The notes beneath the pieces are model-generated. The model was not told the DNA's origin. It was given only the letters and a program-made list of their open reading frames with translations, and ran no database searches. A DNA stretch of 64,000 nucleotides from Minisyncoccota bacterium (GTDB lineage: Bacteria > Patescibacteriota > Microgenomatia > UBA1400 > UBA12028), in assembly GCA_003487265.1 (NCBI GenBank), contig DNEP01000013.1, positions 24,618 through 88,617 on the forward strand. Direction: 5' to 3'. Below are positions 1 to 20,895 of this stretch, in pieces. Every line of letters starts with the position of its first letter. Within the stretch, counting starts at the first letter, position 1. The position numbers and the translations under genes were made by a program.

Positions 1-454
1 TCTTTTCTAAAATTTCTGTATACAAAGCTAATTGAACTGCGTAATGTCTCTTCAGTTTGGGACCATTTTCATCACCATTTTCTTCTGTTCCTTCAAACCC
101 TCTACCACTTTTTACATCTACAGCGATATAGGTGCCATCATCCAAACGGCGTAAAAAATCAGGAATTCCCAATAAATTCTCATGTTGAATGACAGGCTGA
201 TACAAAAGTTGGGCACCATCTTCCAATGCCTCTTTAGTATTAATGATTCGTTCTTGTTGATCTCCAATACTCAAATCAACAAAATCACCCAACCTGCTAA
301 CTGCTTTCTGTTCATGTTGGACACCCTTGTCCCAGAGTAATTGAACAAAAGGATTAGTCTCCTTAATTTTCTCTACCTGAGGACCATAAGCGTCCCGCCA
401 CACTCGATGAGGGCATTGAAGATAGTTATAAAGTTTTGATGCTGTGAGTTGCAT
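1..454 (-). CDS. PD-(D/E)xK superfamily nuclease, RecB/Cas4-like (TM0106-like N-terminus); partial, continues past the window start
   Basis: Not in the ORF track because it is truncated. Manual translation of the minus strand from ATG at 454-452 gives MQLTASKLYNYLQCPHRVWRDAYGPQVEKIKETNPFVQLLWDKGVQHEQKAVSRLGDFVDLSIGDQQERIINTKEALEDGAQLLYQPVIQHENLLGIPDFLRRLDDGTYIAVDVKSGRGFEG...KLKRHYAVQLALYTEILEK with no stop up to base 1. It shows an hPD motif (GIPDFL) and a DxK motif (AVDVKSG), and an N-terminus of the form LYxYLxCPHRVW typical of the TM0106/RecB-family nucleases. The start lies 3 nt after the helicase stop and in the same frame. Confidence 0.5.
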   Translation of the reverse strand, partial: MQLTASKLYNYLQCPHRVWRDAYGPQVEKIKETNPFVQLLWDKGVQHEQKAVSRLGDFVDLSIGDQQERIINTKEALEDGAQLLYQPVIQHENLLGIPDFLRRLDDGTYIAVDVKSGRGFEGTEENGDENGPKLKRHYAVQLALYTEILEK

Positions 455-457
455 ATT

Positions 458-3400
458 TTAACTTTGTGAATTCTCCACTAACCAGTTTCCTTTTTCGCGT
501 CTACCTAGAGATATTTTTCCAATGACTTCCTCATCCTTTATTAGAAAAATAAACCCTGCATAGCGAATTTTCAAGCCTAACCACATCTTCACCTCCATAC
601 ATACCGCCAACTTCTGTTTATCTGGAGATAGGAACGCAGAATCCACCCTGCTGCCTTTCATCTTTAGGATTGTTGAAGATTTTTCTGCGACTACTGCCCA
701 AATCTCCTCCTTGTCAATCGTCCTTCTAATACTCCCTAAAAGGTCAACAAGCGGCTCTAATTGGCTTGGTTTTTTTCTAGTCACATACTCTATGTAAATA
801 GGAAGGCCTGTTAGGTTGCAAACTTTAAGATCATCTGGATGGCATTCCCGATCACTCCAAGAGCACTTTTTAGCTTCTACAGGAGAACAGAAATTACCAT
901 TAACTGATCTAACTGCTTCCTTTTCAAGCAATCGAGCATCAGAAATACTGCTTGATACAAAGTATTTTTTAAGTGCCTTTTTACCTGAAAAGGCTGACTT
1001 CTCCAGCTTTGCTGGCAAAACCCTTTTGTTAGACACCTCACAAGTTTCAAGCAAACCTGGAACAACAATCTTCTTAGTTAACTCACAGGTTTCAGACTCT
1101 GTTGATAACAACGGTTGCCCTGTTTCGGAACAGAAAATAAATTCTTTTTTGTGACCAGTCTTTTTGGAAACCACTGATTGTAATTGTTCATCCTTTCTAT
1201 ATTTCTTTCCTGATATTTGACTAACTTCTAATTCGTCTTCGAGAACTTCTGAATCAGTAAACTCACACCTGCCAAAAAAATTAGGTTCTGCCTGTTTACC
1301 ACTTAATGCAGAAGTTTTAAGTAGCGATTTAGAAACAAGTTCACCAGTAATTGATGACTTTTCAACCTCGTCACTAAGAATCTTTCTCCCAGAAAGAGAA
1401 CAAGTCACGATGTACTGAGGTAGAGCTTTTCTCCCACTCTCCTCAGAACTTACAAGTAGATGACGCAATACTCTGTGTCCACTAATATCACAGATAGCTA
1501 AACAATCATAAGGAACCGTCTTCCCAGTTGATTCACATTTGAATAAATCGGGTGCTTCGATTACCTCTTTTTTAGAAGGTACAATCTGAATTGTACTTTT
1601 GTACTCAAAAGTGGAGTCAATATTGTATGAAACATCCATTTGTATTTGGCGATTCATTGCGCCTGCAAGTCCTACCAAGCTCATTTCAACTCTTGGCGTA
1701 AACTCATCTTCAAGTTTTTTCTTTTTTCGCAAATCACTGCCTGCGGCTGCCACTTCCTGAACCATTCTCTCGTTATAAAAACGACAGAATTCATCTATTC
1801 CCTCATCAAGCATTGCCTTTTCAGCCAACAAGTCTGGGACTACTCCGGTCTCTAACGGTCCATCAATAAGCTCTCCCAATGATTTGAGACTCTTTGGTTT
1901 AATTTCTACTCTATGGTCTTGATCTAAGCATTCAACTTTAACCAAACGTTCATAACTATCATGGGCTACGGTTGAGCGAACTCTCACAAGTGCCATACCT
2001 GAAAAACAATTCCAGACTTTTGTCGTCTCTTTCTTTTTGAAGTCACCACCAAATTTGCTGATCCAGTTCTGAACGGCTTGATGTGTGTCTGATTCAAGAT
2101 CCAAATCTAGATCCTTTACATCATGAAGTCTATTACTGATTACTTTGCTCACTAAACGCTCAAAAGCAGTTGTTCCCTGTGCGTAAAGAACGCCATCTAT
2201 TCGACCATTACTTTTCTCTTCAAAATAAATTGACTCTTTCTCATCGTCAAGTTCACAAAGATATACTCCTTCAGGCTGAGGAGTAAGTTTGGAACCAAAG
2301 TTTTTTTTAGCTGTCAAAACAAAACTGCATATATCCATCGAGCGATCTAGTTTCGGCAAACTCGGACATCTAGGTCCAAATTCGGAAGGATCTCCCATAG
2401 AGCCAAGCATAGAACTTATGTTTATCTGTTCTTCTTCCAATTTAAGTTTGGCTTTCGATATGCTTTCACTTGCTGTTTTTGTTGCCGTCTCAACATCTTT
2501 TCCTGCTAACGAATCAACTACTAACCTCCTCACCATTTCCTCAAAGTCAACTGATCCATTTTCATCCTCATCCAAACCGGACGCCTCAAGCATTGCTTCA
2601 ACATCACCAATTGCCTGTGATGCCATTTGGAGCTTTTCCATAAGCCTAGCAACGATGTATTCCTCAAATGTATTTGACAAGATAATATTGAAAATACTTA
2701 CCTTTGCATGCTCGGAGGCCAACCTCTGAATCCGACCTACCCTTTGTTCAACAATCATTGGATTCCAAGGCAAATCGTAGTTAACTAGCACATTAGCTGC
2801 TTGAAGATTTATACCTTCAGCTCCAGCTTCTGTAGAGACAATTACATGAATGTCCGGAGGTTTTTGTTTGAACTGAGCTATAGTTTCTTGATTTCTTAGC
2901 CCAGAATCACCATTAATTAACCCACAAGTAATGTTCCGTTTCCCCAAAAATTCCTCAATTGTGGTTTGAGTTTCGCGACGGCCAGTAAAAATAACTAATC
3001 TCCAGTCATCAGGTCTTTCAGCTTCAAGTTTATAGATAAGAGTACTAAGACCTTTTAGTTTTGCCGAGTCGCTCATGTTATCAACAACAGCACTAACGTC
3101 CAATGATAATGACTCTGGTATTGTTTTATTACGAGCCATATTTTTTAATTGAGCTGACAAAGCATGAGGACTACTTGTGAGTGCTTGGAGGATTGAGATT
3201 TGTGCTAGACGATTCAGCTTTTGAATTGGCTCAGCAATGATGTCAATTAACTTCAATTCGTCAGGGGTCGGTGTCACCTTGTGAAGCTGTACAGTTCTCT
3301 CAGGAAAATAAAGATTTGCGTCTGCCCGTCTTACCCGCGACATATAACCATAAACAATTGATCGAAACTCATCTTTCATTGATGGCACTAATTGGCGGGC

Positions 3401-4168
3401 TTTTGTCTTGGCATCCGCAATGAATCTGCGGGCAAAAATCCCCGGATTCCCGAAGGGATTTTCGTGCCCTCTTGCAGTAGTCAGTAAGTCAACTAGGGAA
3501 TAAATATCCCACAGCCTATTTTGAATCGGCGTAGCGGTAAGCATGAGGACATATTTAAATAATCGATCCTCTAATGCCTGCTTAAAACGAACCGCCCTTT
3601 TAGGGGGAGGGTCAACACCATACAAATTCCGTAGCTTATGAGCCTCATCTAAAATCAACATTTCGTAACCAACGTCAGAAATTTTTTCGAGATGTAGACG
3701 GGCAGAATCATAAGTGGTTATAACTGCTCCCAATTCTCTTGGTGGAGTAGCTTTGATTAAGTCTCTGCCAGTAGCAATAACGGAAGATATACCAAACTTA
3801 GTTTCCAACTCTTCCATCCATTGAAACATTAATAATTTAGGACAAACAATTAGTATTTTTGTTACTCTGCCACGAGCCATTAATTCACTTATCACCAATC
3901 CAGCACTAATTGTTTTACCTAAACCAACATCATCAGCTAATAAAGTAACGGGCAATCTGCGACAAAATGTAATCAGGTTCGTGACTTGGTGATAATATGG
4001 CTCCAATAACTCACTCCATTTCTTTTCGGAGCGCATATCATCACGGTCTTCAATAACAATTGGCTCTATAAGATCCCACTCAATCCCAGCCACGTACAAA
4101 TTAAATTCATCGCTGTTTTTTGCTCTTTGGAGTAATTTTGTCTGGAGTGGTGGTGAAGAGTTGCTCAT
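458..4168 (-). CDS. SNF2/Rad54-family DEAH-box helicase (ATPase core aa ~55-520) with a ~700-aa uncharacterised C-terminal extension containing degenerate Cys-x-x-[ST]-G repeats
   Basis: ORF track, 1236 aa. Motif I is DDVGLGKTISAG, motif II is LILDEAHKLRN, the Q-motif region is YYHQVTNL, and helicase-C motif VI is QRVGRIQRLASEH. The C-terminal half shows no recognisable catalytic motif. It carries about 10-13 degenerate ~13-aa repeats, for example CDISGHRVL, CSLSGRKIL, CEFTDSEVL, CSETGQPLL, CELTKKIVV, CEVSNKRVL and CNLTGLPIY. Confidence 0.85.
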   Translation of the reverse strand: MSNSSPPLQTKLLQRAKNSDEFNLYVAGIEWDLIEPIVIEDRDDMRSEKKWSELLEPYYHQVTNLITFCRRLPVTLLADDVGLGKTISAGLVISELMARGRVTKILIVCPKLLMFQWMEELETKFGISSVIATGRDLIKATPPRELGAVITTYDSARLHLEKISDVGYEMLILDEAHKLRNLYGVDPPPKRAVRFKQALEDRLFKYVLMLTATPIQNRLWDIYSLVDLLTTARGHENPFGNPGIFARRFIADAKTKARQLVPSMKDEFRSIVYGYMSRVRRADANLYFPERTVQLHKVTPTPDELKLIDIIAEPIQKLNRLAQISILQALTSSPHALSAQLKNMARNKTIPESLSLDVSAVVDNMSDSAKLKGLSTLIYKLEAERPDDWRLVIFTGRRETQTTIEEFLGKRNITCGLINGDSGLRNQETIAQFKQKPPDIHVIVSTEAGAEGINLQAANVLVNYDLPWNPMIVEQRVGRIQRLASEHAKVSIFNIILSNTFEEYIVARLMEKLQMASQAIGDVEAMLEASGLDEDENGSVDFEEMVRRLVVDSLAGKDVETATKTASESISKAKLKLEEEQINISSMLGSMGDPSEFGPRCPSLPKLDRSMDICSFVLTAKKNFGSKLTPQPEGVYLCELDDEKESIYFEEKSNGRIDGVLYAQGTTAFERLVSKVISNRLHDVKDLDLDLESDTHQAVQNWISKFGGDFKKKETTKVWNCFSGMALVRVRSTVAHDSYERLVKVECLDQDHRVEIKPKSLKSLGELIDGPLETGVVPDLLAEKAMLDEGIDEFCRFYNERMVQEVAAAGSDLRKKKKLEDEFTPRVEMSLVGLAGAMNRQIQMDVSYNIDSTFEYKSTIQIVPSKKEVIEAPDLFKCESTGKTVPYDCLAICDISGHRVLRHLLVSSEESGRKALPQYIVTCSLSGRKILSDEVEKSSITGELVSKSLLKTSALSGKQAEPNFFGRCEFTDSEVLEDELEVSQISGKKYRKDEQLQSVVSKKTGHKKEFIFCSETGQPLLSTESETCELTKKIVVPGLLETCEVSNKRVLPAKLEKSAFSGKKALKKYFVSSSISDARLLEKEAVRSVNGNFCSPVEAKKCSWSDRECHPDDLKVCNLTGLPIYIEYVTRKKPSQLEPLVDLLGSIRRTIDKEEIWAVVAEKSSTILKMKGSRVDSAFLSPDKQKLAVCMEVKMWLGLKIRYAGFIFLIKDEEVIGKISLGRREKGNWLVENSQS

Positions 4169-4226
4169 AATTTACATTTTGGTCGCATTGTTTCTTTCAT
4201 TAATTTAATCTTTTGTTTGTCTTCAT

Positions 4227-5732
4227 TTAAGCTTTACTGTTACTAGAAAGCTCTTCAAATTTTGCAGCCATAGTAGGATTGTTTTTGATTAGCCGTTTTA
4301 CCGACACGTTCTCTACCTTGTTACCGGCAGTAAGCAGATGCTTGTTAGACAGGCGTAAAGCCTCCTTAATGCCCTCCAACTTTTTGATGGTCAGATCAAT
4401 ACCATCCATAGCATCTCGAAACTTGTTACTAGAATCCTTGACGTTCCTCATGAAGCCATCTTGAAAGAGTTGTAAATCATTCTCGAAGTTGGTGACATCT
4501 ATGTCCTTATCACGAACAAGTGCTAACTCAGCCTTATATTTCAACGAGTCTAAAGCACCATTGCGCAACAGGGTTATGATTGGAATGAAAAATTGTGGAC
4601 GAACAACATACATTTTGTCGTATGCATAGGATACATCGGTAATGCCGGCATAGAGTTCGTTGTCTGCCTCAAGTACGCTTACCAAAACTGCATGCTGACA
4701 TTTCTTTTCAATACGATCTCTATCAAGCTTCTTGAAGTAGTCTTCGTTTTTCTTCTTTGCGGCGGTATCGTCAGATTCGTTCTTCATGTCAAACATGATC
4801 GATAAGATTTCGTTGCCTGCCTCATCAATTTCACGATAGATATAATCACCCTTACCGCCGGCACTAGCATCATTGTCTTTTTCAAAGTGCACATTCCTAA
4901 AAGCACCAGCGGATTGCCACTGCCTAAATGCAATCTTGCAGTGCTCCTCAAGGCTTCTACCCAGTAGTTTAACTGACTGCTTGGACTTGAAGTCCTTATA
5001 CTGGGCAATCTGCTCATCTTTGAGCTTTAGTTCAACCTCATGCCTTTCTTTGAGTGAAGACTCTAACGCCTTCTGTTCATGGTCTTTAATTTCCAGCTTA
5101 CTAGCCAGCTCATCGCGTTCTTTTTCGACTACATTAACAGCCTTAGTCACAGCCAACTCTTTTTCTGTTACAGATGACTCAAGCTTTGCACTAAGTTCAT
5201 CTCGTTCTTTTTCTACTTTTGATACAGCTTCAGTAACAGCTAACTTCTTATCAGTGTCCGCAGCTTCCAGCTTGGCTTGGAGTTTAGCAATCTGAGCATT
5301 CTTTTCAACCTCGGCGGACTCAAGTTTTGCCTGTACCCCAGCCATCTCGGTTTCTTTTTCAGCTAGGGTTTTGGCAAGCAAAGCGTCTATTTCCGCCTTC
5401 AATTCGGCTATTTCTGCATCTCTTTTTACAATGTCTACTTGTAACTCACTTTTTATATTTGCCTCAGCAAGTTTAACAGCACTTTCTTTTTCTGCTTTGA
5501 GCGTAGCCAGTTCCTTGTCCTTTTTGACAATGTCTGCCTGCATTAACTTTTCAACATCGACCCTAGCGAGTTTAATCGCATTCTTTTTTTCTTTTTCAGC
5601 CAGTTCTAGTCGTTCGTGGAGTTCTTTATCAAACACATGATCACGGACTTGCTTGAGGATATCGGCAAATCCGGCCTCATCAGCCTTAAAAACCTTTTTG
5701 CATTGTGGGCATATAATATCGTTCATAGTCAT
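4227..5732 (-). CDS. Zinc-ribbon plus long coiled-coil protein, DUF2130-like (tentative); the C-terminal globular domain may be PD-(D/E)xK-like
   Basis: ORF track, 501 aa. The N-terminus MTMNDIICPQCKKVFKADEAGFADILKQVRDHVFDKELHERL matches the characteristic start of the DUF2130 family as I remember it. Residues ~40-240 are heptad-rich coiled coil with internal tandem repeats. The C-terminal ~250 aa is globular, with GDYIYREIDEAGNEILSIMFDMKNE, a possible D...hhhhDxK pattern. Confidence 0.5.
   Translation of the reverse strand: MTMNDIICPQCKKVFKADEAGFADILKQVRDHVFDKELHERLELAEKEKKNAIKLARVDVEKLMQADIVKKDKELATLKAEKESAVKLAEANIKSELQVDIVKRDAEIAELKAEIDALLAKTLAEKETEMAGVQAKLESAEVEKNAQIAKLQAKLEAADTDKKLAVTEAVSKVEKERDELSAKLESSVTEKELAVTKAVNVVEKERDELASKLEIKDHEQKALESSLKERHEVELKLKDEQIAQYKDFKSKQSVKLLGRSLEEHCKIAFRQWQSAGAFRNVHFEKDNDASAGGKGDYIYREIDEAGNEILSIMFDMKNESDDTAAKKKNEDYFKKLDRDRIEKKCQHAVLVSVLEADNELYAGITDVSYAYDKMYVVRPQFFIPIITLLRNGALDSLKYKAELALVRDKDIDVTNFENDLQLFQDGFMRNVKDSSNKFRDAMDGIDLTIKKLEGIKEALRLSNKHLLTAGNKVENVSVKRLIKNNPTMAAKFEELSSNSKA
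5100..5275. repeat. Imperfect tandem duplication (2 x ~87 nt) inside the coiled-coil CDS
   Basis: The DNA units catcgcgttctttttcgactacattaacagccttagtcacagccaactc and catctcgttctttttctacttttgatacagcttcagtaacagctaactt are ~75% identical. They encode the 29-aa repeats KLAVTEAVSKVEKERDELSAKLE and ELAVTKAVNVVEKERDELASKLE. Confidence 0.5.
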
Positions 5733-5764
5733 TTATATTCTTATTTCCATCGAAATTGATGGAT

Positions 5765-6784
5765 TTACTTTTGTCTTTTCTTTTCTCCTTTGATCAACCG
5801 CTTCACCACTCGGTCAAAATCAGACTCAATTGGCTGGATCTTGTTAAACTCTCTATATTCAGCCAAGGCTTTCTTATCAGCATCATCCTTTGAAACTTTT
5901 CCTTTATCGTCCAAAATTCTGTACTCATTAAACGTCAGGAATTTATTAACACTTTCAGCGAACTCTTCCATGTTGAACGTCTGTCGATTTTCAATCAGAT
6001 TTTCGATGTAATCAAAAAACCCAGTGACAGTTCGTTCAAGTTTTTTAATCTGATCTTCTGGTAAATAATTCTTGGCTACCGTAACATCAGTAGATAAAAT
6101 TCTGCCTGCTGGTGCTTGTTTCCAAGTGGTCAAGCCCATATGGGGTTGGCGACGGTCTGCCCGCTCATCGATCAACTCAGCTGCAGTGTGACCAGTGATG
6201 GCGTAATGGAACTTGTTCTGAACAGTGGCAAAGAAATCTTTAGTCGTTTGGGAGTGAGGATCGTAGTCGATACTACATTCGGCAAAGATATCGGTAATTT
6301 GCTGATAAATACGGCGCTCGCTTGATCGAATCGAACGAACTCTTTCTAGCAACTCACGGAAATAATCCTGACCAAAAACTTTCTCTCCTTGCTTAAGGCG
6401 ATCGTCATTTAGAGCAAAACCCTTGATTATATACTCTCGAAGCACTTGGGTAGCCCAAATGCGGAACTGAGTTGCTCGTCCAGAGTTCACCCGATAACCA
6501 ACAGCAATAATGGCATCAAGGTTATAGAAATTGGTTAGATATTGTTTTCCATCTGTGGCAGTTATCCGGATTTTCCGGACAACTGAATTTTCCTCAAGTT
6601 CTTGCGTTTTGAAAATGTTTTGCAAATGTTCATTAACAGTACGAACATCTACATCAAACAGCTCTGCCATCATTTTCTGAGTCAACCACAATGTTTCGTC
6701 TTGAATAAAAACATCCAGCTTTATATCCCCATTGGGTGAGGTGTAAAGAATAAATGTTGATGTTTGCGTCAGTTCATTCGCCAT
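5765..6784 (-). CDS. RhuM-family protein (Virulence_RhuM; Fic/DOC-associated DNA-binding family)
   Basis: ORF track 5765..6862, trimmed to the internal start MANELTQ at 6784. Family-typical segments are LTQKMMAELFDVDVRTVNEHLQNIF and AIIAVGYRVNSGRATQFRIWATQVLREYIIKGF. The longer 6862 start would overlap a convincing HTH gene in another frame. Confidence 0.7.
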   Translation of the reverse strand: MANELTQTSTFILYTSPNGDIKLDVFIQDETLWLTQKMMAELFDVDVRTVNEHLQNIFKTQELEENSVVRKIRITATDGKQYLTNFYNLDAIIAVGYRVNSGRATQFRIWATQVLREYIIKGFALNDDRLKQGEKVFGQDYFRELLERVRSIRSSERRIYQQITDIFAECSIDYDPHSQTTKDFFATVQNKFHYAITGHTAAELIDERADRRQPHMGLTTWKQAPAGRILSTDVTVAKNYLPEDQIKKLERTVTGFFDYIENLIENRQTFNMEEFAESVNKFLTFNEYRILDDKGKVSKDDADKKALAEYREFNKIQPIESDFDRVVKRLIKGEKKRQK

Positions 6785-6785
6785 A

Positions 6786-6953
6786 TTACTTCTTTTCAAT
6801 AAATCTCCTAATATCCTCAAGACGGTAACGTCTAATTTTTCTCTCACCGATACGTACCGCAACCAAAAGGCCTTTGCGATCCCAAAGACGAAGGGTGTTT
6901 GGGTGGACGCTCAGTATCTCTGCTGCTTCTCTGAGTTTTAACAGTTTTTCCAT
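6786..6953 (-). CDS. Small helix-turn-helix DNA-binding protein, excisionase/MerR-like (HTH_17 type)
   Basis: Not in the ORF track. Manual translation gives MEKLLKLREAAEILSVHPNTLRLWDRKGLLVAVRIGERKIRRYRLEDIRRFIEKK, 55 aa, with a classic Xis/MerR HTH (AAEILSVHPNTLRLWDRKG). Its TAA stop abuts the RhuM ATG (TAATATG). Confidence 0.6.
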   Translation of the reverse strand: MEKLLKLREAAEILSVHPNTLRLWDRKGLLVAVRIGERKIRRYRLEDIRRFIEKK

Positions 6954-7069
6954 ATGTACATCACTTACTAATGAATGACACTAGCATACAAAATCTTGTC
7001 CATTTTATCAATACGATTCCACACCGTTGTTTCTCCACCACCATCTTCCCCTCGTGTTATCATACAGAG

Positions 7070-7834
7070 ATGAAAACACAGGCAATCATCTTCGATTTAG
7101 ACGGTACCGCCGTCGATTCCCCTGTCCAAAAGCTCCCCACCCCCCGCCTCATTCAAGCAATTCAAAATCTTCAACAGCACTATTATTTGTGCGCGGCGAC
7201 TGGACGTTGCTGGACGTTTGCGAAACAGATTGTGCGCGCACTTCATCTAGAGGATCTTTGTATTATTTCCGCTGGCACGCAAATATGCGATCCAAAAACA
7301 GGAGCGATTCTTTGGCAAAAAAATATTCCCGCGAACGCACTTAAAGAGGTAATTGCGGTTTTTTCTGAAAACGAATCTCAAAAAATCATTTTTAATGATT
7401 ACACTGAGGATGACTATTTTTATGGTGGCGTTTTGCCAAAAGAATTTTCATTTTCACAAGAGGTCAACTGGATGTCGCAGAGTTTTGTTCCCGACGAGTT
7501 GGCAATTCAGCTTCATCAGAAACTCTCACAGATTTTGGGAATCACCTGCGTCATGGTTGTATCTCAAAAACCAGGCTGTCGAGATCTGCACATCGTGAAT
7601 GACCGCGCCACAAAAGAACACGCGATTGCCGAACTCCTCCAACGACTTGGTGTTCATAAGAAAGACACCATTGGCATTGGCGATGGTCACAACGACCTTC
7701 ATCTTTTTCAAGCGGTTGAGAGAAAAGTCGCGATGGGGAATGCGGTGACGATCTTGAAGCAAAACGCGGATCTCATCATTGATTCTGTACAAAACGACGG
7801 TCTCGCGCAGTATTTTGAGTCGTTATATGAATAA
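7070..7834 (+). CDS. HAD-superfamily hydrolase, Cof-like (HAD-IIB) phosphatase
   Basis: ORF track 6971..7834, trimmed to MKTQAIIFDLDGT. HAD motif I is DLDGT and motif IV is GIGDGHNDLHLF. Confidence 0.75.
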   Translation: MKTQAIIFDLDGTAVDSPVQKLPTPRLIQAIQNLQQHYYLCAATGRCWTFAKQIVRALHLEDLCIISAGTQICDPKTGAILWQKNIPANALKEVIAVFSENESQKIIFNDYTEDDYFYGGVLPKEFSFSQEVNWMSQSFVPDELAIQLHQKLSQILGITCVMVVSQKPGCRDLHIVNDRATKEHAIAELLQRLGVHKKDTIGIGDGHNDLHLFQAVERKVAMGNAVTILKQNADLIIDSVQNDGLAQYFESLYE

Positions 7835-10114: not shown

Positions 10115-10185
10115 GCCTTCTTAGCTTAGTGGCAAAGCAGCGGTATCGTAAACCGCGGACGACAGTTCGATTCTGTCAGAAGGCT
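10115..10185 (+). tRNA. tRNA-Thr (anticodon CGT)
   Basis: Manual fold. Acceptor GCCTTCT/AGAAGGC, U8A9, D-stem GCTT/AAGC, anticodon stem GCGGT/ACCGC with loop ATCGTAA (anticodon CGT), 4-nt variable loop, T-arm GACAG-TTCGATT-CTGTC, discriminator T. CCA is not encoded. Confidence 0.75.
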
Positions 10186-10188
10186 CAT

Positions 10189-20781: not shown

Positions 20782-20821
20782 ATTTCTTTGTTGCTATGAC
20801 TGTCTTATCGAACATTCTCTG

Positions 20822-20895
20822 TGCTCACACCAAGATTCGAACTTGGGACCTCACGAATGTGAATCGTGCGCTCTAACCAACTGAGCTATGCGAGC
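20822..20895 (-). tRNA. tRNA-Val (anticodon CAC)
   Basis: Manual fold of the minus strand. GCTCGCA acceptor with G-U, TAGCTCAGTTGGTTAGAGC D-arm, anticodon stem CACGA/TCGTG with loop TTCACAT, T-arm CCAAG-TTCGAAT-CTTGG, discriminator A. Confidence 0.8.

Follow-up and report, generated by a model that had tools for sequence, protein, structure and literature searches.

We analysed a 64,000-nucleotide stretch of a Minisyncoccota genome (contig DNEP01000013.1, positions 24,618 to 88,617; hereafter the window), the left end of which carries a block of five genes encoding, in order, a helix-turn-helix (HTH) protein, a RhuM-family protein, a DUF2130 protein, an SNF2-family ATPase (the helicase) and a nuclease. 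On balance, we lean slightly towards reading this block as a small composite defence operon in which three independent modules lie side by side. In the best-supported division, module 1 is the RhuM protein, which corresponds to the PADLOC candidate PDC-S05, module 2 is the DUF2130 nuclease, and module 3 is the SNF2 translocase together with its nuclease. The initial annotation, made from the window alone, had proposed all five genes as an undescribed defence system; that proposal is plausible for the helicase-nuclease pair only, whereas the five-gene unit is not conserved. Its wider view of the locus, as an instance of the helicase-nuclease theme in defence with the flavour of a defence island, holds up. 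More tentatively, and with rather more doubt than confidence, we propose that an SNF2 ATPase with a variable repeat array and a nuclease combining Cas4-like and RNase-H-like domains would form a new two-gene anti-phage system, in which the TM0106/DUF2779 nuclease would be a plug-in effector of unrelated motors.

The features of the block are as follows (window coordinates).

6786-6953, minus strand: HTH gene, 55 aa; first gene of the block
5765-6784, minus strand: RhuM-family gene, 339 aa, with the ATG after the HTH stop as its start
4227-5732, minus strand: DUF2130 gene, 501 aa
458-4168, minus strand: SNF2-family ATPase (helicase) gene, 1236 aa
818-1537, minus strand: repeat array inside the helicase gene, aa 878-1117
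1-454, minus strand: nuclease gene, first 151 codons of 503 aa, cut by the window edge
6983-7011, minus strand: promoter-like site from a consensus scan, with -35 TTGATA, a 17-nt spacer and -10 TATGCT

These open reading frame (ORF) positions bear out the co-directional arrangement first described, with spacers of 1, 32, 58 and 3 nt, and profile searches confirmed the domain calls of all five genes.

Pairing of the helicase with its nuclease

The helicase matches SNF2-rel_dom (2e-28) and Helicase_C (3e-18) over only aa 75-483 of its 1236 residues, and its motor (aa 75-520) is followed by a conserved C-terminal extension of about 700 aa. The family is well conserved over its full length (about 1230 aa, 50-62% identity across phyla), with nearly invariant ATPase motifs, and ranges over Patescibacteria, Acidobacteriota, Nitrospirota, Ignavibacteria, and Alpha-, Beta- and Gammaproteobacteria. 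Relatives of solved structure found by sequence were SNF2 motors alone, such as RapA and Rad54-like proteins. The extension contains 16 tandem 15-residue repeats with the consensus [C/S]-x-[ILV]-[S/T]-G-[K/R]-x-[VA]-L, the register being read from the sequence; the first position is Cys or Ser, and the cysteines at that position are invariant. The AlphaFold2 (AF2) model of the helicase has a regular strand/turn pattern with a 15-residue period. No corresponding named repeat family or solved structure was found for the array, and the repeat tail of this helicase appears undescribed. Longer homologues (1350-2100 aa) match in several stretches, apparently with more repeat copies, which suggests that copy number varies; the array is a candidate recognition surface.

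The end of the nuclease gene was reached, as the initial annotation had advised, by extending the contig leftwards in public assemblies, where it was read as a 23.7-kb extended locus (L001) and where the identical helicase protein is present on 23 contigs. The full 503-aa nuclease matches RNase_H_2 (PF13482, 1.4e-28) and PDDEXK_1 (1.8e-5); its 151-aa window fragment matches the NCBIfam model TIGR03491 (TM0106) at 3.6e-10 and 39 bits, below the 97-bit cut-off. It combines a Cas4-like PD-(D/E)xK domain, with four cysteines (C14, C216, C219, C225), D99, D113-x-K115 and a QxxxY motif, and an RNase-H-like 3'-5' exonuclease domain with a D-I-E-D-D motif. Residues C14, D99, D113, K115, Q141, Y145, C216, C219, C225, D322, E324 and D484-D485 are all kept in nine partner nucleases, and the catalytic residues of both domains are conserved in the TM0106 and DUF2779 subfamilies described below. 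By its domains and motifs the protein belongs to the TM0106/COG2251 RecB-like nucleases, and identical or near-identical proteins carry the TM0106 family name at NCBI, where the identical one is assigned to a Microgenomates-group (CPR) bacterium. A search by sequence found no relatives of solved structure. Cas4 models in PADLOC score weakly (1e-5 to 1e-7), and the gene does not appear to belong to a CRISPR-Cas adaptation module, there being no cas domains in the 23.7-kb extended locus, in which CRISPR arrays were not directly searched for.

We compared the gene neighbourhoods of full-length helicase homologues at 80 loci in other genomes. In 26 of them a nuclease of the TM0106 or DUF2779 type, about 500 aa long, adjoins the helicase, on the same strand in 24, lying upstream in 13 and downstream in 13, mostly with gaps of less than 30 nt; these nucleases belong to two subfamilies that are only distantly related, TM0106/PF13482 and DUF2779/PF11074. 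The other immediate neighbours are heterogeneous and include integrases, OLD/GajA-like ATPases, SMC-like ATPases, patatin and others. A neighbour-joining tree built from 69 helicases places that of the window in a cluster with 19 members, drawn from several phyla; a nuclease is adjacent in 18, and the two nuclease subfamilies are interleaved. The exception is the window's closest relative, L007, where a 221-aa DUF6602 protein with a NucC-like PD-DExK match stands at the nuclease position. The other large cluster comes mostly from Proteobacteria and Nitrospira; there the helicase mostly stands by itself, and 5 of about 50 members have the nuclease next to it. Adjacency in 18 of 19 members, together with the conserved catalytic residues and ATPase motifs, indicates that the helicase-nuclease pair is the conserved unit of the window's lineage. 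Cross-phylum identity is about 55-60% for the helicase and for the nuclease, which points to horizontal spread. Genes near the members of this cluster include large serine recombinases, CBASS, AbiE, PD-Lambda-2 and methyltransferases, and integrases and OLD/GajA-like genes occur near the wider helicase family.

Sampled from the nuclease side, eight homologues (57-80% identity) had varied neighbours: superfamily 1 (SF1) helicases of 1524 and 1553 aa, an MmeI/Type-ISP-like enzyme, a ThsB-TIR-like protein, a HEPN protein and a TaqI-type restriction-modification (R-M) pair. For one of the eight, a Type III Res gene, accompanied by two Mod genes, overlaps the nuclease start, and another lies among housekeeping genes beside the exonuclease VII large subunit. 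Three of the helicase loci, L072 among them, have the nuclease fused to an SF1 helicase, and fusions of COG2251 to SF1 helicase (AAA) domains have been noted in the literature. These varied neighbours and SF1 fusions suggest that the nuclease behaves as a promiscuous module, often partnered with a large motor protein and commonly found in defence contexts; several motor-based defence loci seem to share the TM0106 nuclease as an accessory. If this is correct, the plug-in nuclease would serve the present SNF2 family, the 1500-aa SF1 helicases and Type III Res subunits, and the widespread 'solo-Cas4' TM0106/DUF2779 proteins would gain a role in immunity as interchangeable effectors of motor-driven defence. 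Nuclease homologues placed directly after the Type III Res, SF1 helicase and MmeI/Type-ISP-like genes can be seen at L170:3171-7527, L171:1417-7509, L173:647-7494 and L168:2583-7509, and two of these loci have RmuC and Shedu SduA_C genes downstream.

The pair could instead be a RecBCD/AddAB/Dna2-like machine that processes DNA ends in repair and recombination, which would be useful to the reduced genomes of the candidate phyla radiation (CPR). A nuclease with an iron-sulfur (Fe-S) domain of the Cas4/AddB/Dna2 type and an exonuclease domain of the proofreading type would suit such a role; a DUF2779 homologue is quasi-essential in JCVI-syn3.0 according to the literature, some nuclease homologues sit among housekeeping genes, as beside exonuclease VII, and the window's block is itself flanked by housekeeping genes. 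We nevertheless consider this explanation unlikely. The pair has a sporadic distribution and, with 55-60% identity between unrelated phyla, has spread horizontally; from one genome to the next it has different neighbours, recombinases and defence genes among them; nuclease homologues are surrounded by R-M, Shedu and TIR genes; and in the window the pair is co-operonic with RhuM/PDC-S05.

On the defence reading, module 3 may act by translocation-coupled degradation, a proposal that draws by analogy on HmaA, ZorD, the Type I/ISP enzymes and RecBCD/AddAB. The SNF2 ATPase would track along foreign or aberrant double-stranded DNA, with its repeat-bearing tail as a recognition or docking surface. 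The partner nuclease, in which a Cas4-like Fe-S PD-(D/E)xK domain is predicted to be joined to a DEDD-type 3'-5' exonuclease domain, would contact the helicase and degrade both strands from nicks or ends. Should the pair protect against phages, it would represent a helicase-nuclease system whose spread over phyla takes in CPR bacteria, Acidobacteriota and some Proteobacteria.

RhuM and DUF2130 modules and the exchange of block positions

The RhuM protein matches Pfam Virulence_RhuM (5e-107) and PADLOC PDC-S05 (PDLC04868, 1.2e-154) over residues 7-335 of 339 and profile positions 4-334 of 335, and is already catalogued as this single-gene candidate. The full-length likeness is confined to the second gene of the block and does not extend to the block as a whole. 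In a preprint, PDC-S05 alone was protective, reducing the plating of T7 and T5 about 1000-fold, and RhuM has been proposed in the literature as a toxin domain linked to R-M loci.

The DUF2130 protein matches PF09903 (2e-71) and consists of an N-terminal zinc ribbon, a coiled-coil-like helix of about 225 residues and a PD-(D/E)xK nuclease domain, in that order. Its family membership rests on the PF09903 match, a restriction-endonuclease-like alpha-beta-beta-beta-alpha-beta core and the conserved D...(D/E)xK motif; it has no PADLOC match, and no relative of solved structure was found by sequence. DUF2130 proteins range from about 395 to 610 aa, a variation that apparently lies in the length of the long helix. 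Among 80 metagenomic DUF2130 loci (45-54% identity), which were found with a two-sequence alignment, none contains the present helicase family. No constant partner emerged there, the neighbours being ATPases of HerA-like, RloC/AAA_13-like and OLD-like kinds, Type I R-M subunits and a PLD-SNF2 protein. As its homologues occur in such varied defence contexts, the DUF2130 protein is probably self-contained.

Two sister loci allow the block to be compared position by position. The HTH protein, which matches Pfam HTH_17 (2.2e-10) and MerR_1 (2.8e-10), is 93% identical in L007 and 91% identical in L123 and leads the block in both. L007 belongs to a Blackburnbacteria genome, and its nucleotide sharing with the window is limited to three stretches, namely the promoter and HTH gene (78%), the first DUF2130 codons and the helicase gene (84.5%; 87% amino acid identity of the protein). 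The five positions of L007 are filled by HTH, PDC-S22 (KilA-N, 6e-133), a 477-aa DUF2130 protein, the helicase and DUF6602, and the two replaced positions are located as follows.

L007:7656-8486: PDC-S22, at the RhuM position
L007:13717-14382: DUF6602 with the NucC-like PD-DExK match, at the nuclease position

In L123, the HTH and RhuM genes are followed by a DUF2130 gene with a divergent coiled-coil region and then by the contig end. This DUF2130 gene (L123:7474-8526) has conserved ends, with 87% and 72% nucleotide identity, and a coiled-coil middle that cannot be aligned. Judged from these sequences, the positions of the block are filled by interchangeable cassettes within one operon frame. 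The L007 comparison illustrates how defence operons get rebuilt: the promoter, the HTH gene and the helicase stay in place, while either PDC-S05 or PDC-S22 occupies the slot of the single-gene candidate, and either TM0106 or DUF6602 that of the nuclease.

These comparisons also bear on the initial proposal that the five genes are all components of a single integrated defence system, in which the HTH protein would regulate, RhuM and DUF2130 would provide a sensor or a second effector, and execution would fall to the helicase-nuclease pair. The tight spacers and the single conserved promoter-like site are consistent with such a system, as is the recurrence in L007 of the five-position order (HTH, DNA-binding-domain protein, DUF2130, helicase, PD-(D/E)xK nuclease). 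A DUF2130 protein, moreover, ranks second in frequency among the helicase's neighbours; it lies within 6 kb in 7 of the 80 helicase loci and directly alongside in three of them. Yet RhuM was found in none of the 80 helicase loci and the HTH gene clearly in only one, that of L007; both are missing from 17 of the 19 members of the window's cluster, most of which also have no DUF2130 gene. The helicase, for its part, is missing from all 80 DUF2130 loci, PDC-S05 alone was reported to be protective, and the RhuM position in L007 holds the unrelated, catalogued PDC-S22. Because homologues of the five genes are mostly not co-localised in other genomes, the idea of a five-gene system fails the neighbourhood comparison that the initial annotation had itself called for, and we regard an integrated system as quite improbable. 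Close spacing and a common strand are insufficient to define a system.

The composite reading that we prefer faces difficulties of its own. The DUF2130 gene is adjacent to the helicase and co-directional with it in L007, L079, L085 and the window, and the two may have a facultative functional link. No nuclease is adjacent in 52 of the 80 helicase loci, and in 42 of these each flank extends for 2 kb or more; the helicase may therefore act alone or with unlinked partners. The association is also one-sided, in that none of the eight sampled nuclease homologues adjoins this SNF2 family. No component for self/non-self discrimination was identified, and full-length helicase homologues were found neither on PLSDB plasmids nor on INPHARED phages. 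The block in this genome lies among housekeeping genes and has no integrase. Finally, the anti-phage role of the block's genes and of the helicase family is itself something that we infer.

Promoter, flanks and mobility

The block had been described as an AT-rich island of 33-35% GC against about 45% elsewhere; the measured values are 40.0% for the block and 43.0% for the rest of the window. The dip of about 3 points is real, windows of the same size elsewhere ranging from 41.3% to 44.6%, and is smaller than first stated. The promoter-like site lies 5' of the HTH gene, at the right-hand boundary of the block, where its activity is predicted from its sequence, and no minus-strand terminator-like sites occur in the intergenic gaps of the block. 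Nucleotide homology with L007 and L123, which have different genomic contexts, starts exactly at the -35 hexamer. This sharp start and the terminator-free gaps suggest a single promoter with the HTH protein as the likely regulator; the five genes probably share this promoter, in agreement with the co-transcription first suggested, and the HTH protein is a putative regulator of the block. The divergent promoter region that the initial annotation placed at 6954-7069 agrees with the start at 7070 that some gene callers give to the neighbouring HAD hydrolase gene. The longest ORF of that gene begins at 6971 and overlaps the block's conserved promoter.

The right flank consists of the HAD hydrolase, a CPBP protease and glycan genes, in keeping with the housekeeping and glycan neighbours reported earlier. 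Past the nuclease, on the other side, lie three small unannotated ORFs, a WD40 protein, elongation factor P (EF-P) and tRNA genes. A 274-aa ORF downstream of the nuclease was considered as a sixth gene and rejected; it has no Pfam or PADLOC match, and its homologue occurs in none of the 80 loci. Within 10 kb on either side of the block, no methyltransferase, integrase, cas gene or partner of known SNF2-based systems was found. Only two RNA genes were detected in the window, neither of which abuts the block.

10115-10186, plus strand: tRNA-Thr (CGT)
20821-20895, minus strand: tRNA-Val (CAC)

A conserved non-coding element of about 50-60 nt, with the core AATCAATTCGTCCRAAWTC, lies 3' of the last block gene in L001 and L007.

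L001:15255-15313: one copy, some 30 nt beyond the stop codon of the nuclease gene and immediately outside the window's left end
L007:14494-14541 and L007:17013-17071: two copies

Both L007 copies have a variable GC-rich hairpin-like insertion that the L001 copy does not have. The element has no Rfam match, is not in the 64-kb window, and among 166 loci was found only in L001-L007.

It is also conceivable that the genes serve an integrative mobile element, in its replication, maintenance, competitor exclusion or anti-defence, and not the host. Large serine recombinases occur near the pair in several cluster members. In L010 (Paceibacterota), recombinase genes at L010:4158-5531 and L010:19348-20676, about 15 kb apart, bracket it on both sides, and related recombinases lie near the helicase-nuclease pair in about eight other loci; carriage on integrative elements is thereby suggested. 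Tyrosine integrases near other helicase loci and the sharp homology boundary at the promoter in three different contexts are also in line with this explanation. It is weakened by the absence of full-length homologues from sequenced plasmids and phages noted above, and by the edges of the block, at neither of which this genome has a recombinase, an integrase, a tRNA gene or a convincing att-like repeat, although the initial annotation had raised the prospect of an integrase or att site on the left. One direct repeat of 35 nt and 71% identity spans the block (L001 7053-7087 and 15138-15172), and was judged to be a chance match because one copy lies inside the nuclease gene. Overall, we consider a role confined to a mobile element very improbable. 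Mobile carriage as such does not separate this explanation from a composite defence operon, since defence genes are typically mobile too.

Comparison with known defence systems

PADLOC found no catalogued multi-gene system in the block, as the initial annotation had anticipated, but did recognise RhuM as PDC-S05. The further alternatives that had been raised, a described system such as DISARM or an R-M variant with its methyltransferase beyond the window, found no match, none of the required genes lying within 10 kb. The helicase motor was matched by the PADLOC/NCBIfam models for BrxHI (1.6e-56), DrmD (8.7e-54), HmaA (2e-47), DpdE (2e-35) and ZorD (4e-34). These matches cover the motor only, and for DrmD, DpdE and ZorD the NCBIfam score falls far short of the family cut-off, which argues that the block is not a DISARM, Hma, BREX, Dpd, Zorya or R-M system.

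Each candidate was also rejected on its own evidence. For DISARM, the DrmD model NF038317 scores 197 bits against a 610-bit cut-off, and no DUF1998, PLD or methyltransferase gene lies within 10 kb. For Hma, Pfam finds no NOV_C domain on the helicase, the HmaA model matches the motor only, and the locus has no DUF1156 or DUF499 gene. Type I, Type III and Type ISP R-M were set aside as no methyltransferase domain occurs in the called genes within 10 kb on either side. For Zorya, BREX and Dpd, the helicase matches are confined to the motor, and the gene table contains no ZorAB, PglX/PglZ/BrxC or DpdA/B. For MADS, the match to mad1 (1.2e-10) comes from the 55-aa HTH protein alone and is of a generic small-HTH kind, with no other mad genes in the locus.

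The window helicase thus shares an SNF2-type motor with DrmD of DISARM, BrxHI of BREX, DpdE of Dpd and ZorD of Zorya, but the obligatory partner genes of these systems are missing within 10 kb of it. The likeness to Hma goes further, as both combine an SNF2-family motor with a PD-(D/E)xK nuclease. HmaA is an SNF2 helicase fused to a NOV_C/DUF3883 PD-(D/E)xK nuclease; HmaA alone protects against T4, and the hma locus is an insertion hotspot for other defence genes (PMC11232893). In the window, by contrast, a separate gene encodes the nuclease, which is of a different family (Cas4-like plus RNase-H-like), the helicase has a repeat array for a tail and no NOV_C, and no HmaB methyltransferase or HmaC ATPase lies nearby. 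Solo-Cas4/COG2251 (TM0106) and DUF2779 proteins have the same two-domain make-up as the window nuclease, but the pairing of such a nuclease with an SNF2 ATPase, the distinguishing feature of the window, matched no PADLOC 2.0 system and was not found in the literature. What appears to be new, compared with all of these systems, is an SNF2 family that pairs with TM0106/DUF2779 nucleases, and the partnering of the same nuclease with different motors.

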